From NCBI GenBank assembly GCA_029976025.1, contig JARKNX010000133.1, positions 85,683 through 149,682 of the forward strand: DNA of 64,000 nucleotides, given 5' to 3'. The notes under the pieces were generated by a model, which saw only the letters and a list, made by a program, of their open reading frames with translations, did no database searches and was not told the origin of the DNA. The stretch is from Aggregatilineales bacterium. Lineage in GTDB: Bacteria; Chloroflexota; Anaerolineae; Aggregatilineales; Ch27. Shown here piece by piece: positions 1-21,840 of this stretch; positions within the stretch are counted from its first letter, which is position 1; each line of letters begins with the position of its first letter. The position numbers were made by a program, and so were the translations under genes.

Positions 1-2
1 TT

Positions 3-2762
3 GCCATCAAGGCACAGCTTTCCGGCGAGGCGCTGGAGGCTACTCCTGGCGTATTCCATGCCATTTATCGGCTGGGGCCGATCGGGCTGTTTGTAATTGC
101 TCTGGGGCTGTTCACGGTGATCCGCCAGCCCCGGATATCGGCGTCCCTGTTCATCCTCTTTCAGGCTATCCTGTTCAGCAGCTACCTGGCCACGCCCGAA
201 GCGACGCTCGGCGGTTACATTCTGGCGGTGATGTTTTCTCTGCTGGGCTATTTTGTCGGCAAATCGCGCCTGGTCCTCTGGCCCTGGGTATCCTACCGGC
301 TCTGGCGGCAATACAGCCGGTTGAAGCGCGATCTGGCCGCCGACGCGCCAGTTGATGAGGCGGCTGCCGGCGTCCTGACCGAGCTGGATAAAGAGATTGC
401 CGCGCCGCTCTATGGTTACGAAGCGGTCTTGCACACCCTGGCTGAAGCTGGCCTCAGCCTGCACAGCTTCAACGCCCGGACAGCCAGCGCTGCCCACCAG
501 ATGGACTACCGGATAATCGTTCAGTCGATAGGGATACGGCGGCTGGAAACGGCGGCTGATCTGCAGGATGTGTACGACATTGTGGAGCGTTATGACCTGG
601 TTTCATATGAGAACCGGGCTTCGCTCCGCATCTTCATCCAGAAGCTGGCGCACAGCGCCACCGCGATTGAACGCCTGCGCACCCGCGCCCAGTTCCTCTG
701 GCAGCTTGGCGAGATCATCCAGCCCGATTGGGAGGAGCAGCAATCCCGCTGGCCCCGCCAGCATATCGCCATTCAGGTGATGATTCAGCAAATCTACGCG
801 TCGGTGAATTTGAATTACTCCGATGTGGCTCAGTACTGGCTGGCCTACCGCAACCTGGAAGCCACAGTCGAGCAGATTAACGCCATCGCCGAACGGCACG
901 TAGAAACCGGGGAATGCGCGCGCCAGGGGGTCCACCTGACCCTGCAGCAGCTTTCTCAGACACAGCAGCGGATACGGGAGATCGAGACGGAATTTTCGCA
1001 CCTTCCGGAGTATGAGAAGGGGTGGCATCACGCGCTTCTGGATACCGATTTCGATGCGACGCAGTTGTTGACGGTGGACTACCGCGTGCGTGAGGAGATG
1101 GTCCGGGCTGAGATCGAGCGCCTGCAACTGCTGGGCCGAAGCCAGCCGGCGAGCTGGCTGGCGATCAGCAATACCGGCGAAGAGGTCGTCGATCAGATGA
1201 ATCCCTGGTGCGTCATGACCCACCAGTTAATGCAGCGGCTGGAGATGGTGCGACAGATGGACGATCGTTACGTCGCCTGGGCCGAGACAGAACTGAGCAG
1301 CATCCTGGCCGGGCTGCGGACGGTCAAAGATATTGCCGATCTGGATCAGCGCCTGTCGGTGCTGACCATGTCCGATGACAGCTTCGGCCCGATGGTGGAC
1401 GGCACGATTGAGGCGCTGCAGGAGATCGGCCAGCAGACCCGCGCCGCGCTGGCATCGATGGAGGGCACCCATCACCGCCGCCAGCTTTTGATCGAGGCGG
1501 AAGATCGCAGCAATGCGCTCCGCAACTGGCTGCGCACCCGTTATGGCCGGGCGCGGACGCGCCAGTGGGCCGATTATGTGCAAAAGTCAATCAGCGAGGT
1601 GCTGGACGATCACCTCAACCACCAGCGCGAGCAGGAACAGGCGACTTACCGCAACCCCTATATTGTCGGCAACCCGATCACGCCCAAGAGCGCCACGTTA
1701 TTCAAAGGGCGCACCGACCTCGCCCGGCAGCTTGCCGACTTCCTCAACCGTGACAACCAGCCCACCATCGTCCTGTATGGCCCGCGCCGAATGGGCAAAA
1801 CCAGCTTTCTGCTCCAGCTTCAGAATCTGCTGCGCGGCCTGAATGACGACTATATCCCGGTTTTCCTGAATGGGCAGGATGTCGGCGTTTGCCAGAATGA
1901 CGCCAGCTTCTTTTACTTCCTGGCGCGGGCCATCCATACCCAGCTCACCCAGCGCACCGGCCAGCAGATCGAGCGGCCAACCCGCGAAGACCTCGAATCC
2001 GAGCCGTACAGCATCATTCGTGAGTGGATTGATGATAAGGTTGCGCCGCTCCTCAACGAGCGTCAGATGCTTCTGATCACGATTGATGAGTTCGAGAAAA
2101 TCGGGGAGGCCATCCATAAGGGCGAGCTTTCGGAGAAAATTCTGGATTTCCTGCGACATACCATGCAGCATGGTGAGCACATGGTCTTCCTGTTCTGCGG
2201 GGTCGAGACGCTGGACGCGCTGGGGCCGAACGCGGCTTCTTACTTCATCAGCGTGCAGACGTTCGAGATCAGCTATCTCAGCCAGGATGCCGCGGAAGAG
2301 CTGATCCGCTCCCCGAATCCCGCCGCCGGACAGATGCCGGACTACGACGATGACGTGGTGGCGGAGATCATCCGGCTGACACACTGCCAGCCGTACCTCG
2401 TCCAGGCCATCTGCTCGCGCATTGTGGATATCGCCAATGAGGAGCACCTGAGGTGTGTCCAGATGGACACGCTGGAGAAAGGGCTGTCCAGCCTCTTCGA
2501 CACCAACCGGCTGTATTTTCAATATCTGTGGAACGATGCCGGGGAGTACGGGCGGACTATCCTCACAACCCTGGCCGGCGGGCCGGCCTCGCTGGAGCCG
2601 GGACAGCTCGCCCACCCGGAAGGGAAAGGGCTGCTGCTGCGCCGGGTGATCTGCCGCCGTCCGGACGGTATGCACGAGATTGAGATTCCGCTCATGCAGC
2701 ACTGGGTGGCCCTGCAAACGGAAGAGGGGGAAGACACGCTTCCTGTTCTGGTCCACCCCTGA
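3..2762 (+). CDS. Membrane-anchored coiled-coil STAND-like P-loop ATPase (5' end probably left of the window)
   Basis: The ORF-track call 117..2762 starts at a GTG with no SD. The same frame is stop-free back to nt 3 and encodes a further hydrophobic helix (GPIGLFVIALGLFTV), so the true start is probably upstream of the window. TM helices: SLFILFQAILFSSYL and GGYILAVMFSLLGYFV. About 450 aa of helical, coiled-coil-like sequence follows. Then NPYIVGNPI...FKGR, Walker A GPRRMGKTS (nt 1779-1805) and Walker B LLITIDEFE (D-E codons 2085-2090). The HCQPYLVQ helix plus winged-helix-like tail matches the layout of ORC/Cdc6-like (ATPase_2/AAA_16 type) STAND NTPases. Confidence 0.75.
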   Translation, partial: AIKAQLSGEALEATPGVFHAIYRLGPIGLFVIALGLFTVIRQPRISASLFILFQAILFSSYLATPEATLGGYILAVMFSLLGYFVGKSRLVLWPWVSYRLWRQYSRLKRDLAADAPVDEAAAGVLTELDKEIAAPLYGYEAVLHTLAEAGLSLHSFNARTASAAHQMDYRIIVQSIGIRRLETAADLQDVYDIVERYDLVSYENRASLRIFIQKLAHSATAIERLRTRAQFLWQLGEIIQPDWEEQQSRWPRQHIAIQVMIQQIYASVNLNYSDVAQYWLAYRNLEATVEQINAIAERHVETGECARQGVHLTLQQLSQTQQRIREIETEFSHLPEYEKGWHHALLDTDFDATQLLTVDYRVREEMVRAEIERLQLLGRSQPASWLAISNTGEEVVDQMNPWCVMTHQLMQRLEMVRQMDDRYVAWAETELSSILAGLRTVKDIADLDQRLSVLTMSDDSFGPMVDGTIEALQEIGQQTRAALASMEGTHHRRQLLIEAEDRSNALRNWLRTRYGRARTRQWADYVQKSISEVLDDHLNHQREQEQATYRNPYIVGNPITPKSATLFKGRTDLARQLADFLNRDNQPTIVLYGPRRMGKTSFLLQLQNLLRGLNDDYIPVFLNGQDVGVCQNDASFFYFLARAIHTQLTQRTGQQIERPTREDLESEPYSIIREWIDDKVAPLLNERQMLLITIDEFEKIGEAIHKGELSEKILDFLRHTMQHGEHMVFLFCGVETLDALGPNAASYFISVQTFEISYLSQDAAEELIRSPNPAAGQMPDYDDDVVAEIIRLTHCQPYLVQAICSRIVDIANEEHLRCVQMDTLEKGLSSLFDTNRLYFQYLWNDAGEYGRTILTTLAGGPASLEPGQLAHPEGKGLLLRRVICRRPDGMHEIEIPLMQHWVALQTEEGEDTLPVLVHP

Positions 2763-2822
2763 TTGCCGATCCTGGCCAGGGTCAGAACGGGGGCGGGACG
2801 CAATTGCGCTTAGCGACAACCG

Positions 2823-2850
2823 TTTATACAATAGAACGTAAAGTTAGAAT
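2823..2850 (+). promoter_or_regulatory. Candidate sigma70-type promoter of the TIR-NACHT-HEAT gene
   Basis: Lies in an AT-rich 148-nt gap after the ORF1 stop (2760-2762). TTTATA (2823-2828), 16 nt, TAGAAT (2845-2850). GGAG at 2900-2903 sits 7 nt before the GTG start at 2911. Pattern match only. Confidence 0.35.
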
Positions 2851-2910
2851 TCTGTTATAGCATCCTGAATTATCCAGTTTTACAGCGCTTCATTCGACTG
2901 GAGAACCTGA

Positions 2911-5900
2911 GTGAGCCAGGATCGAAAGAGTTTCGTCAGCTATAGCGATAGAGATGCCGCCTTTGCCCTGCGACTGGCCGTCGATCTGGCCCAACGGGGC
3001 GTCCCTCTGTGGATGGACCGGCTGAATCTGCTCCCCGGTGAGGATTTCCGGGCCGCCGCCGCGGCCGCTCTGGATGCCCCTCTGGCCTTCCTGGCGGTTA
3101 TATCGCCGGCTTATCTGGAATCTGGCTATTGCCGGGCGGAGCTGGACCGGGCGCTGTCGCTCGGGGTGCCGATCTGCGTTGCTTTGCTCCAGCCCGTGCC
3201 TGAGGCGGACCTGCCTGTGCCGCTCGCTGAGGGGGCTTACGGGGACTTCCGGGCCTGGCCCGATGATGGCGAGGGCTACTGGCAGGGTGTCAACACGCTC
3301 GTCGATCTGTTCTATCGGGAGGCCGGCGTCCCGGTCGCTCCGGAGGCCGGGTCAGAAGCGCGCTACCTGCTGGGGGTAATCCGCGATCTGGGGGCGCGCC
3401 TTGCGATACCTCAGATAGAGGATGCCGGCGATCAGCGCCCTGATCCAGATGGCGCTTTCAACTGGCTGGCGCAGGGGTGCTTCGGGGTTTTTGACCCCCG
3501 GGATATGTCCCCGGCGCTCCCGCAGTTCCGCCCGCACATCGCCCGCTACGAGGGCCTTCAGTCTGTCGCTGAACAATATCCCCGCTTTGTCCTGATCGGC
3601 GATGGCGGCTCCGGCAAGACCACGCTGTTGAGCGGGCTGGCTCTGCAAGCTGCGCGCGCGCGGCTGGCCTGGCCCGCGTCCGCGCCGCTGCCCCTCATTC
3701 TGCCGCTGGCCGCCTGGAGCGGAGATGTTGCGCTGCCTTCTTTCATTCGCCAGGCTGCCGAAGCGGCGGGGTGGCCGTCCGACAGCGATCCGCTGGCGGC
3801 GCTGAGCCAGGGTGAGGCTGCCCTGTATCTGGATGGCCTGAGCGAGACTGAGGATGCTGTCGAGAAGGCCGAGCGGCTGCGCGAATGGCTCCAGTCGGAT
3901 GCCGCGCCGCAGCGGCTGATCGTGACTTGCGACCGGGAGGCGTACCTGCGCGGCCTGGTTCTGGGCCTGCCGGCGGTGCAGATTATCCCCTGGGACGCCG
4001 CCCGCGCTGAGGCGTATCTGGCGGCAGCGGTGAACGCGGATTTCGCACCGGAGCCGGGAGACGCCCTGCCCGCCGGGCGCGCGCCGATCCACCCGTCCGC
4101 CGGCCTGCGCGATCTGCTGCGCCACCCGCTCCTGCTGAATGTGCTGGCCCGCGCCGGGCAGCCCGCTGGCGGCCCCGAGGGCAGCGCAGGAATGCTCCTG
4201 CGGCGGCTGACGGAGCATCGATGGGCGGAAGCGGAAGGCCGGGCGACGGTCTCCTGGACGACGCTGGAAGCCGGACTGGCTGAGCTGGCTTTTCAGGCCA
4301 CGCTGGACGCCATGCCGGTATATCTGCCGGAGGATTACGCCGTCCGTTATCTGGGCGACGCCGCTTTGCTTGACCCGGCCAACAGCGGCGCCTTTCTGGA
4401 GATGGCCGGGGGAGCGGTGCGGTTTGTGCATCAGGCGGTGCGCGACTATTTCGCCGCCCGTTATATTGTGCAGGCCGGGGCGCTGTGCGACTACCTCGCC
4501 CTGCCGCAGTTCGACCCCGGCGAACAGCGCATCCCGGGCCAGTGGGATGCCGCCGTGATCCTCCTCAGCGGCCTGGCCCCCGACCCGGAGGCCATTGTCT
4601 ACGAAGTGGCCCGTGTAGACCCGTTCCTGGCCTTTGAGTGCGCGTACAGCGGCCTGGACCTGTCCCGCGATAGTCTGGACCGGCTGGCCCACCATCTGCT
4701 CAGCTCCTCGTTTGTCCACCGCCAGATCGGGCGCGTGGCAGCCGTCCGCCTGATCCCGGCTGATCTGGCCGAATCGGCCATGCCTACCCTGCTGGAAACT
4801 ATGCGAAACGGCGCGTGGGATGCCCGCTGGGCCGCCGCCGACACGCTGTTCGAGATGAACCCGCCGCTGCTGCCGGGCGTCCTGGAGGCGCTGGCGGACC
4901 TTGATTCTCCGCTCAACACGGCTGCCGGGGCGGCGCTGCGCAAGATCGGCCAGGCGGCCCTGCCGACCCTGCTCATGCTGATGTACGCGGATGATGCTGC
5001 GATCCGGCGGGGGGCGGCCCGCGCCCTCGGTCAATTTGGCGATCCGGCGGCCGTCCCGGTCCTGGTGGAGGCGCTCCAGGACGCCGACCCGGCGGTGGTG
5101 ATAGAGGCCGCCGGCGCGCTGGGCTGGATACGCGATTCTGCCGCCACGCTGTGGCTGCCCCGCCTGCTGCACCATGACCACCCGGATATCCGGCAGGCCG
5201 CCATCCGGGCGCTGGGCTGGATGCGCGCCGCCGCCGTGGATAGTATGCTGGATGCCGCTGTTAATGCCCCCGATCTGGAGACGCGCACCCAGGTAATTGA
5301 AGCGCTCAAAGATACCTCTGATCGGGCGGTACAGGATCGGCTGTTGCACGCCACGACCAGCGACGACGGCGAGATTCGCGCCGCCGCCCTGGAAGCCTTG
5401 GAGAACGCGGAGGGCCCTGTGTTTGTGAAACGTCTCATTGATGCCCTGGAAGATACAGCCTATTCCCGCTGGCGTGGCAAAAGCATCGGCAGCATTGCCG
5501 CTGAAGTCCTTAAAGCGCGGGGGTACGATGCTGCCGCGCTGGCCGCCGAGGGTGAGGAGGACGCCCCGACTGCCCCGGCCGCTGAAGAGGCTGAGCATAT
5601 CCCCCCCCGATTCGAGACAGAAGCGCCCGCTGGCCGGAATTCCGCCTCCACAGCCCGGAGCCGCCTGAAGCGGATCACGGCTCAGGACGCGGCGCTGGCC
5701 GCCGCCCCTGCGGCATCGCTGGAGGAAGTTCAGGAGGGGACGCCCGCTCCGCTGCCGACTGAAGTTGCTCCGCTTGACACCCCGCCCCGGCCAGCTTCCC
5801 GCCAGTTCGAGCTGGCGGACGATCTGACCAGCCTGGACTGGAGCCGCCGGAGCGATGCCGTGCTGGCGCTGCAGGGTCAGGAGCCTGAGATAGCCATCCC

Positions 5901-7260
5901 GCGCCTGATACAGGCGCTTAAGGATGAGGATAGCCAGGTCCGGCTGGCTGCGGTGGATGTGCTGCAAACCTTCAACACCGAGGACGCGCTCAGGGGCCTG
6001 TTCATGGCGCTCGGCAACGATGAATATCTGGTGTGCGACGCGGCGTCGGACGCTTTCGCCCGGATTGGCCGGCGGACCGTCCCTTATCTGATCAGGGCGT
6101 TGTCCAGCCCGCAGGTCAACATGCGGGCGGGGGCTGTGGAAGCGCTGGGCAAGATTGCCGATCCGGCGGCTATGGCGGACCTGACCCGGCTCCTTTCCGA
6201 TACAGAGCGGCCCTGGCTGTTTGATCTGTGCGTGGGCGATCTGGCGGCTAAAGCTCTGGAATCGATCGGCACGCGCGAGGCGCTCCAGATCGTGCTGCAA
6301 TGGCGGGCGGAAAACGCCCCCGACCCCCGGACGCAGGCTCTCAGTCAGGCGCCGGTCCTGTCCGAAGATTTGGCCGCCCCGGCGGAGAGCGCCGCCGAAG
6401 ATGATGCGCCATCTGCGCCGGAAGCCGGGGCGTCAGCCCCCGCAACGGCGACCGTGCTCCCCGGCGAGCTGACCCCGCCGCGCGGCATGCCGGAAGACCC
6501 GGGCAACCGGCAGATTGTCCTCGAAGTGCTGGATAACCTGCGCCACCCGGAATGGGAGGTCCGGCAGGCGGCGGCCAGGACGCTGCGCGAATATGCCAAG
6601 GCCCTCAAGGGGGCGGATGACCCGACTATTCTGGGGCGCTTGCAGGACGCTCTGGAAGACCCCTCCTGGGAAGTGCGCTGGGCCGTGGTGGAGGCGCTGG
6701 CCTGGATCGCCAACCCGGTCACCGTCCCGGCTATCGCCAGACGTCTGGAGGATAAGAACTGGATTGTGCGCGTCGCCGCGATCCGGGCGCTGACGGAGAT
6801 CCGGGATATCAGCGCCGCCCCGGCGGTGATCGGGGCGCTGAAAGATCGCAAGGGGCTGGTGCGGGAGGCCGCTGCTGAAGCTCTGGGCGAGCTGGGTGTT
6901 CCGGCGGCGGTGAATCCGCTGATCGAGCTGCTGCAAGATTCTGAGACGCTGGTCCGCCTGGCGGCCATTTACGCCCTGGGCAGGCTGCGGGCGCGGGCGG
7001 CGGTGCGGCAGGTGATGACCGCCCTGCGCGATGAGGACGCCAACATCCGGCTGGCGGCGGCGGTCGCGCTCGGCAAGATCGGGGATCCTCTGGCGATCAG
7101 CCGGCTGATTGAAGCCCTGGAGGATACGGGCAGCCCGTCGTGGGAGGAACAGCGGGTGTGTGACGCCGCCGCCGGGGCGCTGGAAGATATTGGCACACCA
7201 GAGGCGCTGGACGCCGCAACGCAGTGGAGGTCCGCGCAGGCGCCAGGGGTAGCAAACTGA
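2911..7260 (+). CDS. TIR-NACHT-HEAT repeat protein (NLR-like STAND NTPase, 1449 aa)
   Basis: GTG start with a GGAG SD. N-terminal TIR: SFVSYSDRDAAFALRLAVDL...FLAVISPAYLESGYCRAELDRAL, with the conserved Glu codon at 3139-3141. NACHT-type P-loop: Walker A GDGGSGKTT (3598-3624) and Walker B AALYLDGLSE (3820-3846). The C-terminal ~800 aa hold three arrays of PBS-lyase/EZ-type HEAT repeats, for example IRRGAARALGQFGDPAAVPVLVEALQDADPAVVIEAAGALGWIRD. Acidic Ala/Pro/Glu-rich linkers separate the arrays. Confidence 0.9.
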   Translation: MSQDRKSFVSYSDRDAAFALRLAVDLAQRGVPLWMDRLNLLPGEDFRAAAAAALDAPLAFLAVISPAYLESGYCRAELDRALSLGVPICVALLQPVPEADLPVPLAEGAYGDFRAWPDDGEGYWQGVNTLVDLFYREAGVPVAPEAGSEARYLLGVIRDLGARLAIPQIEDAGDQRPDPDGAFNWLAQGCFGVFDPRDMSPALPQFRPHIARYEGLQSVAEQYPRFVLIGDGGSGKTTLLSGLALQAARARLAWPASAPLPLILPLAAWSGDVALPSFIRQAAEAAGWPSDSDPLAALSQGEAALYLDGLSETEDAVEKAERLREWLQSDAAPQRLIVTCDREAYLRGLVLGLPAVQIIPWDAARAEAYLAAAVNADFAPEPGDALPAGRAPIHPSAGLRDLLRHPLLLNVLARAGQPAGGPEGSAGMLLRRLTEHRWAEAEGRATVSWTTLEAGLAELAFQATLDAMPVYLPEDYAVRYLGDAALLDPANSGAFLEMAGGAVRFVHQAVRDYFAARYIVQAGALCDYLALPQFDPGEQRIPGQWDAAVILLSGLAPDPEAIVYEVARVDPFLAFECAYSGLDLSRDSLDRLAHHLLSSSFVHRQIGRVAAVRLIPADLAESAMPTLLETMRNGAWDARWAAADTLFEMNPPLLPGVLEALADLDSPLNTAAGAALRKIGQAALPTLLMLMYADDAAIRRGAARALGQFGDPAAVPVLVEALQDADPAVVIEAAGALGWIRDSAATLWLPRLLHHDHPDIRQAAIRALGWMRAAAVDSMLDAAVNAPDLETRTQVIEALKDTSDRAVQDRLLHATTSDDGEIRAAALEALENAEGPVFVKRLIDALEDTAYSRWRGKSIGSIAAEVLKARGYDAAALAAEGEEDAPTAPAAEEAEHIPPRFETEAPAGRNSASTARSRLKRITAQDAALAAAPAASLEEVQEGTPAPLPTEVAPLDTPPRPASRQFELADDLTSLDWSRRSDAVLALQGQEPEIAIPRLIQALKDEDSQVRLAAVDVLQTFNTEDALRGLFMALGNDEYLVCDAASDAFARIGRRTVPYLIRALSSPQVNMRAGAVEALGKIADPAAMADLTRLLSDTERPWLFDLCVGDLAAKALESIGTREALQIVLQWRAENAPDPRTQALSQAPVLSEDLAAPAESAAEDDAPSAPEAGASAPATATVLPGELTPPRGMPEDPGNRQIVLEVLDNLRHPEWEVRQAAARTLREYAKALKGADDPTILGRLQDALEDPSWEVRWAVVEALAWIANPVTVPAIARRLEDKNWIVRVAAIRALTEIRDISAAPAVIGALKDRKGLVREAAAEALGELGVPAAVNPLIELLQDSETLVRLAAIYALGRLRARAAVRQVMTALRDEDANIRLAAAVALGKIGDPLAISRLIEALEDTGSPSWEEQRVCDAAAGALEDIGTPEALDAATQWRSAQAPGVAN

Positions 7261-7652
7261 TGCGGGTGTTTTCCTGAGGGTGAAGCAGGCGCGCCGGGAA
7301 GCTGCCGCCCGCCGGTGAAAAACAAATTAATACCTTTTTAACACCGGCAGGTGGCGGGGTATGTTATTTTAAAAGCGGAGCACTTCAACAAAGGCTGACT
7401 GCTACGGGCCATCCGTTTTCCTCTCACCTATTCCAGAGGGGGCTGTGAGTAAGGTGAAGGTGCTTCGCTATTATCTCCGAAGCGGAAAGTAGATCGGCAG
7501 GACTCCGCGCCGGGGATACCGCCTCAAGCGGGTATAGACGCTTCATTTCTTTTCATGATCTCAATTGGGGGGGTTACCCGCACAGTCGGTTCCGCGAGGC
7601 AGGGTGACGCCTAAAATCCTTTGCGCGGATAGTGCACCTTCAGGAATATGCC

Positions 7653-9209
7653 ATGCGACTATTTGTCAGCTATGCCCGTGTAGACAAACCCTACTGTATT
7701 CAGATTGTGGATACGCTGGAAGCGCACGATTCGTGGTTCGATCAGCGTCTGTATGCCGGCCAGAACTGGTGGCAGGAAATCCTCCGCCGGCTGGACTGGT
7801 GCGAGGGATTCATCTATCTGCTGTCGCCTGACTCCGTAGCCTCAGAATACTGCCGCAAGGAGTTCGAGCTGGCGCAAAGCCTGGGGCGCCCTATCTTCCC
7901 CATCCTGATCCATAAGGACCTTAATCTGCCGCCGTCGCTTGCCGAAGTCCACTATGTGGATTTCAGCGAAGGCATCACGGTCGAAGCCGTCACCGGGCTG
8001 CTGAATGCGATCACGATCGCCGAGCGGCGACGCGGCGCCGGCAGCCCGCTGCCGGTCTCGGCCATCGATGCCGAGGATGTCAAGCCTCCGACGCCCGATT
8101 CCGGTCTGGTGATCAGCGCGGCGGCTGAGGCGATGGAGAAGGGCCAGTTCGACAAGGCGGTTTTCCTGCTCAAGCAAGCCAAGGCCAACAATTTTGTCTC
8201 CCAGTTCATCAGCATTGACGCCCTGCTGCAGGAGGCACTGGCCGGTCTGGAGCGGCAGTCGTACCTGCGCGAGGCGGAGCGCGAGTACCGGCAGATTGCT
8301 GATCTGGTCAAGTTCACCCGCACGCGCCGGCTGGGTTGCGAGGCCTTCAAAGCCTTTCGGCAGGCTTTCCCCGATTACGATCCGGACAACCTGTCGGTCT
8401 ACTGCAGCGAGACGACAAATTTTTCCATATCCGCCCCGCTTGAGCGGTTTGCCCCTAAAGAGCCGCCGGCCCCCCCCGTGCCTGCGTTCCGGCTCCCCCT
8501 GCTGGAGTGGTGTCCGGTGCCGGAAGGGAATGTCCTGATCGAGGGCAACGGCAAGACCTACCCGGAGCCTAAGCTGTTTCAGGTGCCGGCTTTTGAGATC
8601 AGCAAATATCCGATCACCAACGCCCAGTATCAGGCATTTCTGGATGATCCGGAGGGGTACGCCAACCCGGCGTGGTGGGAATTTTCGCCGCTGGCGATGG
8701 AAGTGCGGGCGGAAAACGGCGAGCCGAAAGCCCCCCATTTCACGGGGGACGAGCGTCCGCGCGAGATGATCAACTGGTTCGACAGCATGGCGTTTTGTGC
8801 CTGGCTGAGCGACAAACTGGGGGCCAGGGTGACCCTGCCGCTGGTCAACCAGTGGGTGCGGGCCGCCCGCGGCGATTCTAGCTGGGACTTTCCCTGGGGG
8901 GAGCGCTTCATCCGCGAACGGTGCAATACCAGCGAGAGCAAGCTCAAGATGACTTCGCTGGTCAATCGCTACCCCGATGGCGCCAGTCCCTTCGGGGTGG
9001 TGGACATGGCCGGCAATATCTGGGAGTGGTGCCTGAACCCCAAGAATGATCTCGAAGATCAGCCGGAGATCACCAGCAGTCAGGAGCGCGCGGTGCACGG
9101 CGGGTCGTTCATCGGCCCCTCTACCCGGGCCAAGATTTCCTTCCGCTATTATCTGAATCCCAGGCTGTATTACTCCTCTATCGGCTTCCGCGTTGTCAAA
9201 CTGCCATAG
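7653..9209 (+). CDS. TIR domain / helical linker / FGE-sulfatase-fold (SUMF1-like, FGS) domain protein
   Basis: ATG at 7653 (MRLFVSYARVD...). The ORF track offers an alternative in-frame start at 7632. TIR: FVSYARVDKPYCIQIVDTLE...FIYLLSPDSVASEYCRKEFELAQSLGRPIFPILI, with the Glu codon at 7860-7862. Middle region: TPR-like helices (AMEKGQFDKAVFLLKQAKANN). From about nt 8493 the protein has FGE-sulfatase motifs: FEISKYPITNAQYQAFLDD, INWFDSMAFCAWLS, FGVVDMAGNIWEWC, RAVHGGSF...SIGFRVVK. Confidence 0.85.
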   Translation: MRLFVSYARVDKPYCIQIVDTLEAHDSWFDQRLYAGQNWWQEILRRLDWCEGFIYLLSPDSVASEYCRKEFELAQSLGRPIFPILIHKDLNLPPSLAEVHYVDFSEGITVEAVTGLLNAITIAERRRGAGSPLPVSAIDAEDVKPPTPDSGLVISAAAEAMEKGQFDKAVFLLKQAKANNFVSQFISIDALLQEALAGLERQSYLREAEREYRQIADLVKFTRTRRLGCEAFKAFRQAFPDYDPDNLSVYCSETTNFSISAPLERFAPKEPPAPPVPAFRLPLLEWCPVPEGNVLIEGNGKTYPEPKLFQVPAFEISKYPITNAQYQAFLDDPEGYANPAWWEFSPLAMEVRAENGEPKAPHFTGDERPREMINWFDSMAFCAWLSDKLGARVTLPLVNQWVRAARGDSSWDFPWGERFIRERCNTSESKLKMTSLVNRYPDGASPFGVVDMAGNIWEWCLNPKNDLEDQPEITSSQERAVHGGSFIGPSTRAKISFRYYLNPRLYYSSIGFRVVKLP

Positions 9210-9231
9210 AGCGCGCAGCCTCACGCGGCAT

Positions 9232-9278
9232 AAAACAGACAGCGGCCAGATTGTGCCATCTGACCGCTGTTTTGTTTT
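9232..9278. terminator. Bidirectional intrinsic terminator between convergent genes
   Basis: The stem at 9236-9251 pairs with 9258-9273 (ACAGCGGCCAGAT / ATCTGACCGCTGT, one mismatch) around a 6-nt loop. AAAA lies on the left and TTTTGTTTT on the right. It sits between the stop at 9209 (+) and the stop at 9295 (-). Confidence 0.75.
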
Positions 9279-9294
9279 ACCCGGGGCGGGGGCC

Positions 9295-11139
9295 TCAATG
9301 GTGATCGAAGGTCAGCATCGCCACGTTCATCTCGCACCCGTCAGCGAAGCGAATCGACTGATCGGGTGAGAGCGGATTGCCGAAGCCATCCTCAATGCGG
9401 GCGGTCCATGTGTTGAGCTGTGCCGCGTCCGCGCGGACGGCGACTTCAAAGCCGGCGGGGCCATAACGCGGATCGCTGCCGCTCAGGATGTAGCGATCCA
9501 GCCCGGGGCCGAACACATGCACCAGGGTGGCCGGGCGCGGGCTGCCGTCCCCGTTGCGCACCTGCCCGGCGATGCCGAACCACTGGCAGGCCGGGTGCAG
9601 CTCGCTGCGAATCACCATGCCACTGACGGAGTACTGGAAGCCGGGGGTTGGCGTGGCGGTGAAGGTCGGCGTGTAGGGCGCGTGCAGGATGGCCTGAATG
9701 GTCGGGTCGGGCGTGCTCGTCATCGCCGGGACCAGATAGCCGGGATCGCCGTAGGCCGGGACCAGATAGTTGCTGCGCACATCGTTGAATATCTCCCGCG
9801 CCTGCAGCATCAGGTTATAGCCGTTGGTGCCTGCTTCGACCGGCATCACATAGCCGGGCGTCCTGGTGAACCCGTTGCACTGGGTCTGCCACACGGCGAT
9901 GCTCTGACGCAGCACAGCCAGCCCCTCGTTCATGCGATTCACCAGCGGGATGAGCTGCGGGTAATGCTGCTGCTCCCAGGCGGTCAGGGCGTAGTCCGGC
10001 GGCTGCTGCGGCAGGTTGACACACGGCGGCTCGCCGGTCACACCCAGCCGGACATCCAGCCAGATCGCCTCGATCCGCTCAAATTGATCCTGCGCGAAGT
10101 TGAGATGGGCGTGGATTCCCTGTAACTGCACCGTGTAGCTGCCTGTGATGCGGAATAACACCTCATCGAAGGCGGCGCGGGCGCTCTGTATCGCCGGCGG
10201 TCCGCCAGCGATGGCCTGCCCGGTGGCGTTATTCGGCCCGGCCAGACAGGCATCCAGATACCACTGGACGGCATTGTTAAGGTCGTTCAGGCCCTGGTTC
10301 AGCCGGAGCACTGCCTCGATCAGATCGGGGAAGGCATTCCGGTCGGTCGAATTGAGGAAGAAGCGCTCCATCAGCGGAGGGGCGGAGCAGACCTGCGGCC
10401 AGATGCCAGCGCGGAGGCTTTGCCAGGCCGGCTCGATCACGTCCAACGTCGCCCGGGCCTGGTCCAGCGTGCGCCGGATCTGGTCCACCACCAGGAACTT
10501 ATCGCGCGCGTTGGCATCGGTCAGGCGCGCCCCGGTATCTGACGCCGGCGGGACCACTGGCACGTCGTTGATGGTAGCGCCGCTGTCGCTGAACAGGGTG
10601 ATATTGTCCAGGAACAGCCAGCCGACCAGCCCCTCCCACGTGACCTGTATCCAGTCGTTGCTGGCCACGCGCCCGGTCACCGGAAACTCGGCATAGCGGG
10701 GCAGGTTCTGCAGGATGGGGTAGGCCGTGCTCGGCCCGGCGCGCAAGGCCGCGCCGCTGTACTCCAGCCGGCCCTTGAGCGCCCCGGCGGGGCTGCCCCC
10801 GCCCGCGCTCGGCGCGGCGTTGCTGTTGTAGGGGATAGTGCGCGGGTCAGCCAGGGGGAGGGTGTTCACGTCGCCGCTGACGTTGACCACCAGCCGCCCC
10901 ACCCAGCCTTCGCGACCGAGGTAATCAATCCGCACCCATTCCCCATCGACCGAGCGCCCTGTCGCCGTCGCCGTATCAGCGGGGCCCATGCTGCCGATCA
11001 CGGTGGCGCCAATGGCCGGCCACAGCCGCACATTGATGTAATCCCGGTTGGGCGTTACAGTGATAGTCCCCTGCGCCTGGATGAGCGCGGGGAAGATAAT
11101 GCCGATGAGCAGGACGGCAATCAGCGCTCGTTTGAACAT
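9295..11139 (-). CDS. Secreted protein with two SH3b-like domains, otherwise uncharacterised
   Basis: Signal peptide MFKRALIAVLLIGIIFPALIQAQG. SH3b-like segments: YINVRLWPAIGATVIGSM...GEWVRIDYLGREGWV and ALRAGPSTAYPILQNLPRYAEFPVTGRVASNDWIQVTWEGLVGWL. The remaining ~400 aa have no motif I recognise. Confidence 0.7.
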   Translation of the reverse strand: MFKRALIAVLLIGIIFPALIQAQGTITVTPNRDYINVRLWPAIGATVIGSMGPADTATATGRSVDGEWVRIDYLGREGWVGRLVVNVSGDVNTLPLADPRTIPYNSNAAPSAGGGSPAGALKGRLEYSGAALRAGPSTAYPILQNLPRYAEFPVTGRVASNDWIQVTWEGLVGWLFLDNITLFSDSGATINDVPVVPPASDTGARLTDANARDKFLVVDQIRRTLDQARATLDVIEPAWQSLRAGIWPQVCSAPPLMERFFLNSTDRNAFPDLIEAVLRLNQGLNDLNNAVQWYLDACLAGPNNATGQAIAGGPPAIQSARAAFDEVLFRITGSYTVQLQGIHAHLNFAQDQFERIEAIWLDVRLGVTGEPPCVNLPQQPPDYALTAWEQQHYPQLIPLVNRMNEGLAVLRQSIAVWQTQCNGFTRTPGYVMPVEAGTNGYNLMLQAREIFNDVRSNYLVPAYGDPGYLVPAMTSTPDPTIQAILHAPYTPTFTATPTPGFQYSVSGMVIRSELHPACQWFGIAGQVRNGDGSPRPATLVHVFGPGLDRYILSGSDPRYGPAGFEVAVRADAAQLNTWTARIEDGFGNPLSPDQSIRFADGCEMNVAMLTFDHH

Positions 11140-11308
11140 GAGCCTGTTCCCTCACCTGATAGGTCACCCGGTTACTGCCACCAGTGTAGCACAGCCCGCC
11201 GCTGCCGGCATACTCCCAAAGGTCCGGGTCACGCACTGAATGGAGAAGCGGCCCCACGCCCGGTGACCTGCTCCCTGGTCAGAGGCGCGCCCCAATTATG
11301 AAAGACTG

Positions 11309-11337
11309 TTGACAGCCTTTTCAAATTGGTATACGCT
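11309..11337 (+). promoter_or_regulatory. Candidate sigma70-type promoter
   Basis: TTGACA (11309-11314), 17 nt, TACGCT (11332-11337). Confidence 0.4.
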
Positions 11338-11670
11338 GCATGAGAGCGCTCCCCAATACAGATATAAGTTCGAGTCTGAACCAGAATGAGATCGCCAAAC
11401 TGGCCGGGGCATCTCGCACCATTGTGTCGCGTATCCGCACGATTGTCCTGATCTTCTCCGGTGTCGCTCTGCCCCTTTCATCGACTCTTGCTTTTCACTT
11501 AGCTCGCTCATCCCGCTACAAGCATGTCATGGCTCGCTGCCGGGAGAAGATGCCGCCCGTGACGCACCTGGACGATACGCGCTGGCTGCGATGCTACCTG
11601 TTCGAGAAATGAATGGCGCTGGCGGCCCGGAAGCCGGGACGCCGCCGGCATTGGAATATGGCGCAGAGGA

Positions 11671-11704
11671 GGGCGCGGAGCACCCTCCTGCGCCCGCGTT
11701 TTTT
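11671..11704 (+). terminator. Intrinsic-terminator-like hairpin 15 nt upstream of the GH3 start codon
   Basis: GGGCGCGGAG (11671-11680), loop CACC, then CTCC-t-GCGCCC (11685-11695). This gives 10 bp with one bulge. GCG and TTTTTT (11699-11704) follow. Confidence 0.55.
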
Positions 11705-11718
11705 AGAAAGAGAGTGCG

Positions 11719-14427
11719 ATGAACGACCGAATCAGGACGCTGCTGGAGGACATGACCCTGGAGGAGAAAGTATCGCTGCTGGCCGGGGCCGACACGTGGA
11801 CGACCGTGCCGATCGAGCGGCTGGGCATCCCGGCTATCAAGGTGACGGACGGCCCGAACGGCGCGCGCGGCGCGGGCGACATCACCGGCGGTGTGCCGGC
11901 GGCCTGTTTCCCGGTCGGCATCGCCCTGGCTTCCACCTGGAACACCGGGCTGGTGGAACGGGTGGGGCGCGCCCTGGGGCAGGAGGTCAGGAGCAAGGGG
12001 GCGCATATCCTGCTGGCCCCCACCGTCAATATCCACCGCTCGCCGTTGAACGGCCGCAATTTCGAGTGCTATTCGGAAGACCCCTACCTGACGGCGCGCC
12101 TGGCCGTGGCCTATATCAACGGCGTTCAGAGCGAACATGTCGGGGCGACCATCAAGCATTTCGTCTGCAATGACTCCGAATTTGAGCGCAACTCGATCAG
12201 CTCCGAAGTTGCCGAGCGCCCGTTGCGGGAGATTTACCTGCCGCCGTTCGAAGCCGCCGTGCGCGAGGCGAAGGTCTGGGCGGTGATGTCGGCGTACAAC
12301 CGCGTCAACGGGACCTACGCGGGCGAACATGCCCGCCTGCTGCTGGATATTCTGCGTGCAGAGTGGGGCTTTGATGGAATCGTCATATCCGACTGGTTCG
12401 GGACCAGGAGCACGGCGGCCGCTGCCAACAACGGCCTGGACCTGGAGATGCCCGGCCCGACGCAGTGGCGCGGCAGGCAACTGGTGGAAGCGGTCCGCAC
12501 CGGCGCGGTCAGTGCGGAGACGATCGACGCCCGCGCCGCGCGAGTGCTGTCAATCATTGAGCGGGCCGGCGCCTTCGAGAATCCTGTTTTGCAGCCGGAG
12601 CAGGCGATTGACCGCCCGGAGCATCGGGCTATCATCCGCGAGGCCGGCCAGGAGGCGATTGTCCTGCTCAAGAACGATCGGGGTATGCTGCCGCTGGATG
12701 CCGGCAAGATCAGGTCGCTGGCCGTGATCGGCCCGAATGCCAGGGTCGCCCGCATCATGGGCGGGGGCAGCTCACAGGTGCAGGCGCACTACGCGATCTC
12801 GCCTTACGAGGGGATCGTTTCCCGCGTCGGGAGCGGGGTGGCGGTCGGCTACGAGATCGGCTGCGTGAACCATAAAACGATACCGCTGGTGGAAGCGGCC
12901 TGGCTGGAGCCAGCCGGCGGCGGCGGCCAGGGCCTGAAGGTCGAGTACTTCAATAGCCCGGAGCCGGTCGGGACGTCAGTGGGCACGCAGATTCTTAAGA
13001 ATCTCAACCGCTTCTGGATGGGGCAGCCGCTGCCGGGCGTGCAGGAGACGTTCTCCGCCCGCCTCACCGGGAAGCTGAACCCGCCGGAGAGCGGCGTCTA
13101 TACCTTTGGGCTGAGCAGCGCCGGCCTCAGTCGCCTGTATGTCGATGGCCGGCTGGTCCTGGATAACTGGACTTCGCAGCAGCCGGGCGACTCCTTCTAC
13201 GGCATGGGCAGCACTGAGATCACCGCGCCGGTGATGCTGGAAGCCGGCCAGCCAGTCGATCTCCGGCTGGAGTTCAGCCGGCGCGAGAGCGTGGTGGCCG
13301 CCGGGTTCCGCCTGGGCTGTCTCCCCCCCGTCCCCGCGGACGCGCTGGACCGCGCGGCGGCCCTGGCTGCCCGCTCGGATGCCGCCGTTGTATTCGTCGG
13401 CCTGAATGGCGACTGGGACTCCGAAGGGTACGACCGGCCCGATCTGGAACTGGTCGGCGACCAGGTCGCCCTGATCGAAAAGGTGGCCGCCGCCAACCCC
13501 AACACCGTCATTGTGCTGCAGTCCGGGGCGCCGCTCGTCATGCGCTGGCTGGACAAAGTCCCCGCCGTGCTGCAGGCGTGGTACCTCGGTCAGGAGTGCG
13601 GCAACGCCATCGCCGATGTGCTCTTCGGCGACGTATGCCCCTCCGGGCGGCTGCCGCAGACCTTCCCCGTCCGGCTGGAGGATAACCCCGCCTATATCAA
13701 TTATCCCGGCGAAAACGGCCGTGTGACCTATGGCGAGGGGATTTTTGTCGGCTACCGCTACTATGACAGGAAGAAGATCGCGCCGCTATTCCCATTTGGT
13801 TACGGCCTGTCCTACACCCGCTTCACCTATGCCAACCTGCGCCTGAGCGCGGCTGAAATGGCGCCGGGCGATACGCTGCAGGTTTCGGTGGATGTGACTA
13901 ACACGGGGGATCGGGCCGGCAAGGAAGTTGTGCAGCTCTACGTGCGCGATGTGCAGGCTCGCCTGACCCGCCCGGAGAAGGAGCTGAAGGGCTTCGCCAA
14001 GGTGGCTCTGGCCCCCGGTGAGACCAGGACGGTGACTCTGCCGCTGACGCGCAAGGAGCTGGCTTATTACGACGACAGGCGGGCGGAATGGGTCGCCGAA
14101 GCGGGCGTTTTCGATATACTGGTGGGCGCGTCGGCGGCGGATATCCGCCTGCGGGCGTCCTTCACACTGACGGAGACGGCCGGCTTCGATGGCCCGCCCG
14201 GAGTCGCAGCGCGCCGGCCGATGACGCTGGATACGCCGATGAGCGACCTGCTGGCCGATGAAGGCGCACGGGCTGTGCTGTCCCATCATGTGCCGGGGAT
14301 GCTGGAGTCGTCGCAGCTTGTTGGGATGGCGATAGCGTTCTCGCTCCGGCAGCTCGCCAGTTTCGCGCCGGACGTGCTCACCGATGAGGTGCTGGCGGCG
14401 ATTGGAGCTGACCTGGCCGGCCTGTAA
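11719..14427 (+). CDS. Glycoside hydrolase family 3 beta-glucosidase with PA14 insert
   Basis: GH3 motifs KVSLLAGADTWTT, GIPAIKVTDGPNGARG, KHFVCNDSEFER and SDWFG. PA14-like insert: GLKVEYFNSPEP...YTFGLSSAGLSRLYVDGRLVLDNW. C-terminal Fn3-like domain. 902 aa. Confidence 0.9.
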   Translation: MNDRIRTLLEDMTLEEKVSLLAGADTWTTVPIERLGIPAIKVTDGPNGARGAGDITGGVPAACFPVGIALASTWNTGLVERVGRALGQEVRSKGAHILLAPTVNIHRSPLNGRNFECYSEDPYLTARLAVAYINGVQSEHVGATIKHFVCNDSEFERNSISSEVAERPLREIYLPPFEAAVREAKVWAVMSAYNRVNGTYAGEHARLLLDILRAEWGFDGIVISDWFGTRSTAAAANNGLDLEMPGPTQWRGRQLVEAVRTGAVSAETIDARAARVLSIIERAGAFENPVLQPEQAIDRPEHRAIIREAGQEAIVLLKNDRGMLPLDAGKIRSLAVIGPNARVARIMGGGSSQVQAHYAISPYEGIVSRVGSGVAVGYEIGCVNHKTIPLVEAAWLEPAGGGGQGLKVEYFNSPEPVGTSVGTQILKNLNRFWMGQPLPGVQETFSARLTGKLNPPESGVYTFGLSSAGLSRLYVDGRLVLDNWTSQQPGDSFYGMGSTEITAPVMLEAGQPVDLRLEFSRRESVVAAGFRLGCLPPVPADALDRAAALAARSDAAVVFVGLNGDWDSEGYDRPDLELVGDQVALIEKVAAANPNTVIVLQSGAPLVMRWLDKVPAVLQAWYLGQECGNAIADVLFGDVCPSGRLPQTFPVRLEDNPAYINYPGENGRVTYGEGIFVGYRYYDRKKIAPLFPFGYGLSYTRFTYANLRLSAAEMAPGDTLQVSVDVTNTGDRAGKEVVQLYVRDVQARLTRPEKELKGFAKVALAPGETRTVTLPLTRKELAYYDDRRAEWVAEAGVFDILVGASAADIRLRASFTLTETAGFDGPPGVAARRPMTLDTPMSDLLADEGARAVLSHHVPGMLESSQLVGMAIAFSLRQLASFAPDVLTDEVLAAIGADLAGL

Positions 14428-14494
14428 AGGCGCGCCCGGTTGCGCAGCGCCATACGACGCTCGTTTGAAGCGCAGATGATCGGGGGCGGCTCGC

Positions 14495-17421: not shown

Positions 17422-21840
<4,419 letters not shown>

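Follow-up and report, generated by a model that had tools for sequence, protein, structure and literature searches.

A four-gene TIR-domain cluster of an uncultured filamentous Chloroflexota bacterium consists of two separate two-gene modules

TIR, NACHT, HEAT and FGS (FGE-sulfatase-fold) parts are known, and so is their role in predicted conflict systems of multicellular bacteria. TIR effectors have been listed for bNACHT proteins (10.1101/2022.07.19.500537) and for Avs-type STAND sensors (PMC13581612), and both HEAT repeats (10.1101/2022.07.19.500537) and FGS/FGE-sulfatase domains (10.1101/2022.07.19.500537, PMC13581612) have been named as antigen-receptor-type or sensor modules. Among the FGS-bearing conflict systems of multicellular bacteria are the VMAP/iSTAND ternary systems and the DGR-diversified CLec/FGS sensors (PMC7159879, PMC10907252). 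A two-gene operon encoding two nSTAND2 STAND NTPases was presented by Kaur et al. in 2021 (PMC8195603, Fig. 6C) as a predicted counter-invader system, in which one partner has eroded NTP-binding motifs and is mostly fused to GT4 or HEPN. Fungal and bacterial NLRs with an adjacent effector that shares the N-terminal module of the NLR have also been reported (10.1101/2020.01.06.895854).

The locus studied here lies at the left edge of a 64,000-nucleotide stretch of DNA (the window), and its host is an uncultured filamentous bacterium of the Anaerolineae type (Chloroflexota). The three head-to-tail genes of the window (Table 1), for which ORF calls and Pfam agree with the coordinates and domains of an earlier, sequence-only reading, are the right-hand three of a four-gene cluster in which every gene carries a TIR domain. 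That reading had suspected further components to the left, and a fourth co-directional gene, ORF0 (TIR-AAA_35/nSTAND2), is indeed found outside the window, 21 nt upstream of ORF1. It had also counted two TIR domains in the three genes; ORF1 is open at the left edge of the window, and given that the full-length protein bears an N-terminal TIR_2 of its own, ORF1-ORF3 hold three. The four genes form two separate two-gene modules side by side, module I (ORF0 and ORF1) and module II (ORF2 and ORF3). ORF3 can be read from 7632 or 7653, and most likely starts at the ATG at 7653, as in all homologues. The strong bidirectional terminator proposed for the end of the cluster is seen as a hairpin with T-runs on both strands, and the downstream neighbours, taken for a secreted SH3b protein and GH3, are by Pfam an SH3_3 protein and then GH3. 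Both Glu codons singled out in the TIR domains of ORF2 and ORF3 are GAG, and the translations confirm the Walker A motifs of ORF1 and ORF2.

Table 1. Features of the cluster within the window (amino acid positions are those of the protein named).
Feature	Position	Strand	Details
ORF1, module I protein B	3..2762	+	3' 84% of a 1092-aa gene (full length P0001)
ORF1 TM helices 2-4	48..260	+	Kyte-Doolittle; helix 1 straddles the window edge
ORF1 Walker A (GPRRMGKTS)	1779..1805	+	G766, R768, R769, M770, G771, K772 and S774 invariant in 12 relatives
ORF1 Walker B (ITIDEF)	2076..2093	+	D868 and E869 invariant in alignment A3
Spacer between modules I and II	2763..2910	+	148 nt, GC 47%, AT-rich; promoter-like site 2823-2850
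ORF2, module II protein A	2911..7260	+	NLR-like TIR-NACHT-HEAT, 1449 aa; Pfam
ORF2 TIR domain	2932..3264	+	TIR_2 8-118; catalytic-position Glu codon 3139-3141
ORF2 NACHT core	3589..3939	+	Pfam NACHT 227-343; Walker A 3598-3624 (GDGGSGKTT)
ORF2 three HEAT arrays, two Ala/Pro/Glu-rich linkers	4726..7257	+	aa ~606-850, 985-1135, 1200-1449; HEAT_2 x10
Spacer inside module II	7261..7652	+	392 nt, GC 55%; promoter-like site 7338-7365
ORF3, module II protein B	7653..9209	+	TIR, helical middle domain, FGE-sulfatase-fold (FGS) domain, 518 aa; Pfam
ORF3 TIR domain	7662..7973	+	catalytic-position Glu codon 7860-7862
ORF3 FGS (C-type-lectin-like) domain	8577..9200	+	without the FGE cysteine pair
Bidirectional terminator-like hairpin closing the cluster	9239..9270	.	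13-bp stem, T-runs flanking on both strands

The claim that the locus matches no named TIR system is borne out by the searches with PADLOC and the NCBIfam HMMs, which gave no family-level match to Avs or any other named system. All matches were at the level of the TIR domain, the HEAT repeats or a weak P-loop, far below the family cut-offs (for example, 19.8 bits versus 790 for DS8_antiphage and 27.7 bits versus 220 for ThcB4). As had been stated, the proteins scanned include no ThsA-type partner, cyclase, SAVED protein or reverse transcriptase; for the ThsA partner (SIR2, or Macro/TM with SLOG), this covers the cluster genes by Pfam, PADLOC and NCBIfam and the flanking genes by Pfam. The locus shares with Thoeris the TIR domains with a Glu at the catalytic position and weak matches to ThsB models, but Thoeris was rejected given that these matches are far below family level and that ThsA or another known signal-receiving effector is absent from the cluster and its flanks. 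A vWA-MoxR (VMAP/iSTAND) ternary system was also set aside, since MoxR ATPase, vWA and VMAP were not found among the cluster genes or the called neighbours in the window and in loci L083, L085 and L087.

ORF2 has a tripartite layout of effector, NTPase and repeats (TIR_2 at 8-118, NACHT at 227-343 and HEAT at 606-1449). The TIR domain and three HEAT arrays described for it are confirmed, with Pfam giving TIR_2 and ten HEAT_2 stretches in three arrays separated by two low-complexity linkers. For the NACHT module that had also been described, the score of the window protein (26.2 bits) is just under the cut-off of 26.7, and two orthologues (L018 and L062) score 33.4 and 28.7; the Walker B region reads LYLDGLSE, the expectation for the NACHT type being hhhhDGhxE. 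Walker A is kept in 43 of 61 orthologues and the Glu at the TIR catalytic position, which aligns with the Glu of the WCWDE motif of Cat1, in 45 of 58. By the conservation and occupancy profile of 32 orthologues, the C-terminal HEAT array is the best conserved part of the protein. With its N-terminal TIR effector, NACHT NTPase and C-terminal superstructure-forming HEAT repeats, ORF2 resembles the bNACHT and Avs proteins. The locus differs from them in that the STAND protein carries no fused FGS domain, which is found instead on a separate TIR-bearing protein encoded directly downstream. It also differs in that the pair is vertically inherited with a highly conserved FGS protein, and in that the Avs/NLR models of PADLOC give no match.

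The reading of ORF3 as TIR, helical linker and FGE-sulfatase fold is confirmed by Pfam (TIR_2, and FGE-sulfatase at 316-523) and by the AF2 model (pLDDT 78), for which Foldseek finds FGE, EgtB, PvdO and TvpA. More than 800 homologues have the same architecture, and identity within the TIR-FGS family is 50-87%. The catalytic-position Glu, which corresponds in alignments to that of the catalytic motif in Cat1 and RPV1, is invariant in the 82 family members; both ORF2 and ORF3 keep the Glu at this position, as had been noted. This one conserved residue suggests that the TIR domains of the cluster may cleave NAD. The pair resembles the FGS systems of multicellular bacteria in the C-terminal FGS that follows a variable N-terminal domain, in the presence of TIR and STAND components and in the filamentous hosts; it differs in an FGS that is conserved and not hypervariable. 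A DGR-diversified FGS/CLec sensor was rejected for this reason, and because the window genes scanned include no reverse transcriptase, and positions 1-20000 contain no repeat of at least 40 nt involving ORF3 and no template/variable repeat.

Of the 82 TIR-FGS family members from Anaerolineae genomes, 62 have a gene for a HEAT-repeat protein immediately upstream in the same orientation (NACHT-HEAT in 58 cases, HEAT alone in 4; most often TIR-NACHT-HEAT), and at seven loci the partner has kept the HEAT repeats and has neither TIR nor Walker A. The ORF2-ORF3 pair has been conserved and passed on vertically in Anaerolineae, Aggregatilineales and Phototrophicaceae, with flanks of housekeeping genes that are syntenic within families and different between them. 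The HEAT protein evolves fast, and TIR-FGS very slowly, at about the rate of the neighbouring tRNA synthetase: in the Aggregatilineales group, the mean pairwise identity is 86.6% for TIR-FGS, 83.5% for TrpRS/TyrRS and 42.2% for the HEAT partner, and in Phototrophicaceae it is 78.4% for TIR-FGS versus 57.3% for the partner. The logic of a sensor with a conserved partner matches these rates within module II. ORF3 as the 'TIR-plus-sensor' protein is nonetheless a poor fit, being the slowest-evolving component, with ORF2 the fastest. The combination of TIR-NACHT-HEAT and TIR-FGS appears to be a new, unnamed, conserved and vertically inherited unit of Anaerolineae-type bacteria. Also apparently new is the sharp asymmetry in rate, with a TIR-FGS constrained like a tRNA synthetase and a fast NLR-like partner that can decay to a bare HEAT scaffold. 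As in plant sensor/helper NLR pairs and in NLRs with adjacent effectors, a fast NLR is found beside a conserved partner with the same TIR signalling domain, which is an analogy only; the ORF3 partner has no NTPase, and the NLR-like protein has no TIR in some lineages while the pair persists.

It is about an even call whether both modules are biological-conflict systems (anti-invader or regulated cell death), module II composed of a sensor with TIR-FGS and module I of an ATPase switch, for which the most likely function would be NTP-switched sensing with TIR-mediated NAD cleavage. ORF2 would be the variable, NTP-switched sensor, and its HEAT region, probably the C-terminal array, may hold or recruit the constant TIR-FGS, as their co-occurrence suggests. 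Upon activation, the TIR domains would cluster and cleave NAD+, for depletion or as a signal, leading to cell arrest or death. In module I, the two paralogous ATPases may assemble at the membrane into a hetero-oligomeric switch, which would activate the TIR domains. If these functions are confirmed, the pair would provide a tractable model, in bacteria, for the wiring of a variable sensor to a constant TIR partner and a test of immunity versus endogenous cell-death control for TIR-NLR modules in filamentous bacteria, and the defence catalogue would gain a candidate family, the two-ATPase operon.

TIR-FGS evolves slowly, much like a housekeeping gene, is inherited vertically and lies in a non-mobile context. 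These traits are unusual for anti-phage genes, and endogenous signalling fits them equally well. Module II could then be a core signalling or regulated-cell-death device of filamentous Anaerolineae and not an anti-phage system, in which the FGS would sense an endogenous ligand and the TIR would make an NAD-derived signal. This is in line with a conservation equal to that of an aminoacyl-tRNA synthetase, with vertical inheritance in housekeeping neighbourhoods, with a clade of solo paralogues that many of the same genomes carry in a fixed housekeeping synteny, and with searches that found neither DGR-type diversification of the FGS domain nor copies in viral contigs. We consider it somewhat unlikely, however, given that the partner is fast-evolving and has the NLR-like layout of effector, NTPase and repeats typical of immune sensors, that other TIR-STAND modules accrete beside the pair, and that such architectures have been assigned to conflict systems in published comparative work (PMC7159879; 10.1101/2022.07.19.500537).

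With regard to module I, ORF1 consists of a TIR domain (outside the window), four TM helices, a helical/coiled-coil region of ~450 aa and a Cdc6/Orc1-like P-loop ATPase with a winged helix, in agreement with the TM helices, long coiled coil and ORC/Cdc6-like ATPase read from its visible part. Pfam gives TIR_2 at 4-119 and ATPase_2 at 748-906 in the full-length protein (P0001), and ATPase_2/AAA_22/AAA_16 at aa 567-738 of the visible part. The four hydrophobic segments (P0001 154-179, 189-215, 218-236 and 240-259), called with Kyte-Doolittle windows of 19 aa at a threshold of >= 1.6, are helices in the AF2 model (pLDDT 79.6), in which the long all-helical region is also present. The best Foldseek matches of the ATPase are Cdc6/Orc1, the plant NLRs NRC4, ZAR1 and RPP1, and RuvB.

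Module I is one lineage's form of an operon of two ATPases that is widespread. In 47 of 55 evaluable metagenomic loci, the ORF1-type gene is preceded by a co-directional gene for an ORF0-type ATPase, the two neighbours each having a related STAND-type NTPase core; the gap between ORF0 and ORF1 is 21-40 nt, and the ORF0 ATPase query cross-matches the ORF1-type ATPase with 23-32% identity in L107-L109 and L118. The ORF0-type protein, a soluble ATPase of the nSTAND2/AAA_35 type, carries swappable effectors at its N-terminus, which is highly variable (TIR, trypsin, CHAT, kinase or EAD7), and its nSTAND2 (PF20702) scores are 20 bits in L082, 27.2 in L097 and 26.7 in L099, with a cut-off of 24. The ORF1-type protein is a membrane-anchored Cdc6/Orc1-like ATPase; nearly all family members have multi-TM N-terminal regions, and they match ATPase_2, AAA_16 or nSTAND1 and not nSTAND2. 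A catalytic-position Glu is present in the TIR domains of ORF1 and of the ORF0 of L082, and the ORF0 orthologue in L085 has Met at this position. Module I resembles the published nSTAND2 operon (PMC8195603) in having two paralogous P-loop NTPase cores, one with variable effectors, and in the Pfam nSTAND2 matches of ORF0-type proteins, which exceed the cut-off in L097 and L099. It differs from it in that both partners keep intact Walker A and B motifs (ANRRMGKTS and LDEWE in ORF0, GPRRMGKTS and IDEFE in ORF1), that TIR, trypsin, CHAT or kinase domains serve as effectors, and that the second partner has a membrane anchor and matches ATPase_2/nSTAND1 rather than nSTAND2. This broadly distributed operon of a soluble effector-swapping nSTAND2-type ATPase and a membrane-anchored Cdc6/Orc1-like ATPase appears to be new. 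Elsewhere it is found in the context of a type I R-M system, a DUF1156 methylase and a Trypco1/trypsin/NACHT island.

The sequence-only reading had proposed ORF1-ORF3 as one candidate three-gene system, to be checked by its recurrence in unrelated genomes. A single conserved unit is not supported, given that the genome scan places ORF1 homologues beside only 2 of 61 ORF2-ORF3 pairs, and that ORF0 and ORF1 form an operon of their own that is widespread without ORF2 or ORF3 (L089, L091 and L097-L171); each module is also found alone. Nine lineages have the two modules next to each other, with the same direction in six and a divergent orientation in three (L083, L093 and L096), and these are all nine Anaerolineae lineages with a TIR-type ORF1. 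Because of this adjacency, modules I and II may be functionally coupled.

A single integrated multi-sensor TIR network, which would extend the idea of the sequence-only reading to four genes and in which the TIR domains of ORF0-ORF3 would co-assemble and several sensors would feed one NAD-cleaving output, as in sensor/helper NLR networks, would account for the TIR domain in all four genes and for an adjacency kept despite an inversion and ORF1 identities down to 40-45%. It would also be consistent with the gain of a different STAND gene beside the pair in other lineages, namely that of an 806-aa NACHT protein in Phototrophicaceae. Such a network is nevertheless unlikely, since module II occurs without module I at about 59 of 61 loci, and module I without module II, and with non-TIR effectors, at most metagenomic loci. 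In addition, the 150-300-nt spacers, which contain promoter-like sites, and the divergent orientation in three lineages point to separate transcription units, and a single ancestral insertion with a single inversion can account for the adjacency. Still more doubtful is that TIR-FGS serves as a constant signalling hub, evolving at housekeeping rate in an order-level group of filamentous Chloroflexota, into which fast-evolving NLR-like HEAT sensors, and in some lineages accreted TIR-STAND modules, would plug via HEAT-FGS or heterotypic TIR-TIR contacts. If true, this would be a bacterial counterpart of sensor/helper NLR networks or of TLR-adaptor signalling, with several receptors feeding one NAD-cleaving or NAD-signal-producing output.

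That ORF3 is instead an enzyme, as the NCBI annotation of homologues ('SUMF1/EgtB/PvdO family nonheme iron enzyme') and the fold matches to FGE, EgtB and OvsA would have it, and that its TIR is a non-catalytic scaffold, is very improbable, given that the 25 aligned family members show no conserved Cys after the GGS(F/Y) motif and all lack the copper-binding Cys pair of FGE, that ORF3 has no DinB-type N-terminal domain (which supplies iron ligands in EgtB/OvoA), that the NCBIfam enzyme equivalogs, which have cut-offs of 360-420 bits, give scores of 43-53, that the best PDB sequence match is ToxD and the non-catalytic TvpA also matches, and that the TIR Glu is invariant.

The gap between the modules is 170-310 nt in L085, L087 and L002, versus 21-40 nt within module I. 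The lengths given earlier for the two spacers of the window (148 and about 390 nt) are correct, and the first is AT-rich as described; the second is only mildly so, because its GC content is 55% versus 64% for the whole window. This second spacer is unusually long in this lineage, the equivalent gap being mostly 20-100 nt in other loci, and although it shows no conservation, it is structured (z = -3.3).

The three co-directional + strand ORFs described in the sequence-only reading are present in the window, together with the spacers and the downstream genes (SH3_3 protein and GH3) attributed to them, and the codons that had been named translate to Glu, Glu, GPRRMGKTS and GDGGSGKTT. The terminator said to close the cluster was found as a hairpin with T-runs on both strands (see table). 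The NACHT domain of ORF2 scores 26.2 bits versus a Pfam cut-off of 26.7. Given that all ORF3 homologues open with MR(L/I)F(V/I)SYARVDKP at the N-terminus, the start of ORF3 is placed at ATG 7653.

Coordinates of the features in the window and in the loci of relatives (L handles)
Feature	Location	Strand	Description
ORF1	3..2762	+	open at window edge; Pfam ATPase_2, AAA_22, AAA_16
ORF2	2911..7260	+	Pfam TIR_2 aa 8-118, NACHT 227-343, ten HEAT_2 stretches
ORF3	7632..9209 (ORF)	+	Pfam TIR_2 plus FGE-sulfatase 316-523
Hairpin	9239-9270		13 bp; T-runs flank both strands
Class A penicillin-binding protein	17422-21840	-	1472 aa; ~490-aa N-terminal extension; C-terminal PPC domain
Ser/Thr protein kinase	22090-23814	-	adjoins the penicillin-binding protein gene
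DDE transposase	L087:6822-7583
dnaA	L085:4220-5578
TIR of ORF0 orthologue	L085:8516-8965
806-aa NACHT protein	L062:12237-14657		equivalents in L064, L065, L070-L072, L075, L078, L080
Distant module I relative	L091:713-7266
Distant module I relative	L097:10685-13648
Distant module I relative	L089:1106-9983
Solo TIR-FGS genes	gene ~10001		L050, L051, L054-L057, L059, L060, L067, L069, L073, L074, L076, L077, L079, L081

The expectation that more components lie to the left of the window was borne out. The upstream sequence was read from L082, a 6.5-kb contig of the same sample with a member of the 90% cluster of ORF1; there, a further + strand gene, ORF0, ends 21 nt upstream of that member and encodes a TIR_2 domain plus an AAA_35/nSTAND2-like ATPase. 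The full-length ORF1 protein (P0001, retrieved by the ORF1 search) has 1092 aa with an N-terminal TIR_2. The TIR domains claimed for ORF2 and ORF3 are retained as TIR_2, but their count of two is not, given that full-length ORF1 also has one. Complete four-gene arrays are found in L085 and L087/L088, in the order TIR-AAA_35 (~665 aa), TIR-TM-helical-ATPase_2 (~1080 aa), TIR-NACHT-HEAT (~1400 aa) and TIR-FGS (519-625 aa; TIR, helical middle domain and FGE-sulfatase-fold domain, as in ORF3), and an SH3_3 gene comes next after the L085 cluster, as it does in the window. The L085 cluster starts ~2.4 kb from dnaA, and a DDE transposase gene lies directly upstream of the L087 cluster. In the ORF0 orthologue of L085, the TIR domain has a Met at the catalytic-Glu position, which is a Glu in the ORF0 of the window strain (L082), suggesting that the ORF0 TIR may be non-catalytic in some lineages.

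These genes make up two modules, ORF0 with ORF1 (module I) and ORF2 with ORF3 (module II), instead of the single three-gene system that had been proposed. In the genome scan, which covered one genome per species and gave 80 loci that were then analyzed by ORF clustering and tblastn, module I is present at just two (L002 and L003) of the 61 loci with the ORF2-ORF3 pair. Module II adjoins a TIR-type ORF1 in 9/9 Anaerolineae lineages that have such an ORF1, the modules being co-directional in six (the window, L002, L003, L085, L087 and L094) and divergent in three (L083, L093 and L096), with a gap of 150-310 nt between them. The inter-module gap of the window, that between ORF1 and ORF2, contains a promoter-like site. 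This arrangement is taken to mean two separate transcription units, brought side by side once and adjacent ever since; functional coupling of the two modules is possible, and is not required by the data.

Module I is a separate, widespread operon. In the metagenome scan (80 loci, 55 evaluable), an ORF0-type ATPase gene is located just upstream of the ORF1-type gene and on the same strand in 47 of the evaluable loci, and the intergenic gap inside the module is 21-40 nt. Both ATPases have intact Walker A and B motifs, and almost all ORF1-type proteins have multi-TM N-terminal regions. The N-terminal domains of the ORF0-type proteins, two of which reach the Pfam nSTAND2 cut-off, are swappable (TIR, EAD7+TIR, CHAT+TIR, trypsin+TIR or protein kinase). 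An exhaustive HMMER search with P0001 retrieved four full-length relatives with 40-43% identity together with more distant ones; in addition, 691 proteins at E < 1e-30 resemble it in the C-terminal ATPase module alone, their N-termini being variable. The AF2 model of ORF1 (pLDDT 79.6) comprises the TIR, transmembrane helices, a helical stretch of ~450 residues and a winged-helix-bearing ATPase; structurally it is closest to Cdc6/Orc1, plant NLR resistosomes and RuvB, in agreement with the ORC/Cdc6-like STAND assignment made earlier. Distant module I relatives have defence-type surroundings, which include in L091 a complete type I R-M system, in L097 a DUF1156 plus N6_N4 methylase gene, and in L089 Trypsin-NACHT-TPR, Trypco1, trypsin, Prim-Pol and NB-ARC-TPR genes. 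The published description nearest to module I (PMC8195603) predicts a 'mobile two-gene operon' containing two nSTAND2 NTPases; one partner of that operon is inactive and carries a GT4 or HEPN fusion, and in this the operon differs from module I.

The homologues of ORF3 number more than 800, all with TIR plus FGE-sulfatase and with full-length identities of 50-66%, and those that are named come from Chloroflexi or Anaerolineae MAGs. In the genome scan too, nearly all loci bear one of the labels Anaerolineae, Aggregatilineales, Phototrophicaceae and unclassified Chloroflexota. Aggregatilineales abound in activated sludge and in sediment. An ORF2-type protein (usually TIR-NACHT-HEAT; median 1311 aa) is encoded directly upstream and on the same strand in 58 of the 82 TIR-FGS genes, and a HEAT-only protein of 520 aa takes this position in four more, bringing the genes with a HEAT partner to 62/82; the gap is mostly 20-100 nt. 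The module is flanked by housekeeping genes (for example TrpRS/TyrRS, EamA and ABC transporters) that differ across families and are syntenic inside each, which points to vertical inheritance rather than to a mobile defence island. In Phototrophicaceae, an additional, highly conserved NACHT protein of 806 aa (84.7% mean identity) is encoded downstream of the pair, sometimes preceded by a 165-aa gene.

In a rough NJ tree, the remaining TIR-FGS genes make up a monophyletic 'solo' clade nested among the paired ones. Its members are 47-49% identical to ORF3, have no HEAT partner and sit in a constant housekeeping synteny (GH-like protein, SBP_bac_3, ParA, two GT4, GT9, PPK2 and NFACT), and many genomes contain both paired and solo TIR-FGS genes. 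Solo copies are in tandem in L077 and L081 and form an inverted pair in L054.

In seven syntenic Aggregatilineales loci, the mean pairwise identity is 86.6% for TIR-FGS versus 42.2% for the ORF2-type partner, with 83.5% for a neighbouring tRNA synthetase; in Phototrophicaceae the values are 78.4% and 57.3%, with 54-85% for neighbouring genes. ORF3 had been proposed as a TIR-plus-sensor protein; given this difference in rates, ORF2 is more probably the sensor and ORF3 the constant component. The catalytic-position Glu is found in 82/82 TIR-FGS proteins and in 45/58 ORF2-type proteins. The three HEAT arrays and two low-complexity linkers are kept in the ORF2-type proteins (32 full-length orthologues), and the best-conserved region of ORF2 is the C-terminal HEAT array (aa 1200-1449), a figure that is inflated by HEAT consensus residues. 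One subclade has a partner from which the TIR and the Walker A have both been lost and in which the HEAT arrays persist; therefore, the constant association is that of a HEAT protein with TIR-FGS.

In the mechanism proposed for module II, ORF2 would be a fast-evolving, NTP-switched NLR-like sensor whose HEAT region would hold or recruit the constant TIR-FGS protein, and activation would cluster the TIR domains, leading to NAD+ cleavage. For module I, the soluble and the membrane-bound ATPases would assemble into a hetero-oligomeric switch, and at the membrane this switch would turn on the attached TIR domains. The chief alternative is that module II would have an endogenous signalling or cell-death role and not one in anti-phage defence, and it is favoured by the conservation and the context of TIR-FGS, which are both housekeeping-like.

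The FGS domain of ORF3 matches ToxD, EgtB, OvsA, FGE, PvdO and the DGR variable protein TvpA in sequence and fold. FGE has a Cys pair after a GGS motif, and this pair is absent from all 25 aligned ORF3-family members. No DinB-type domain was found in ORF3, and the NCBIfam enzyme models score it far under their cut-offs. With catalytic residues missing and such scores, the reading of ORF3 as an FGE/EgtB-type enzyme was rejected, and its FGS domain is, from these sequence comparisons, probably not an enzyme. Diversification by a DGR was also rejected, given that neither a template/variable repeat nor a reverse transcriptase was found for ORF3; the domain is conserved and not hypervariable. The helical middle domain gave no Foldseek match in a whole-chain search, where the FGS domain dominated the matches.

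The locus is an unnamed TIR/STAND-based one, as had been anticipated: PADLOC and NCBIfam gave no family-level match to any of the four proteins. The cluster proteins and those neighbouring genes that were scanned include no ThsA, cyclase, SAVED, vWA/MoxR or RT partner, and Thoeris, CBASS/Pycsar, Avs and retron identities were discarded in view of the PADLOC, NCBIfam and Pfam results. A phage or prophage origin was discarded because neither ORF1 nor ORF3 had relatives in viral contigs. Earlier work already covers the components and the broad class of the locus, namely bacterial NACHT proteins with TIR effectors, HEAT and FGS 'antigen-receptor' domains (10.1101/2022.07.19.500537), STAND clades with FGE-sulfatase sensors (PMC13581612), and conflict systems of multicellular bacteria with FGS (PMC7159879, PMC10907252). 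No account of TIR-NACHT-HEAT paired with TIR-FGS turned up in the literature searches.

Within the window, the ORF1-ORF2 spacer has 148 nt and a GC content of 47% and the ORF2-ORF3 spacer 392 nt and 55%, compared with 64% for the window. The latter (7261-7652) is unusually long, folds better than shuffles (z = -3.3) and contains a large hairpin at ~7300-7360 followed by a T-rich run. A regulatory RNA or small ORF in this spacer was set aside, given that its sequence is not conserved in the nearest relatives (L002, L003, L085 and L087) and that its ORFs are short and unconvincing. No tRNA genes or Rfam matches were found within the window. The GC content of ORF2 (68.5%) exceeds that of ORF1 (60.7%), ORF3 (60.9%) and the window (63.9%), probably owing to the Ala-rich HEAT repeats of ORF2. 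The remaining window resembles ordinary chromosome, with glycoside hydrolases, CheA and a sulfate permease, and includes the adjoining penicillin-binding protein and protein kinase genes listed in the table.
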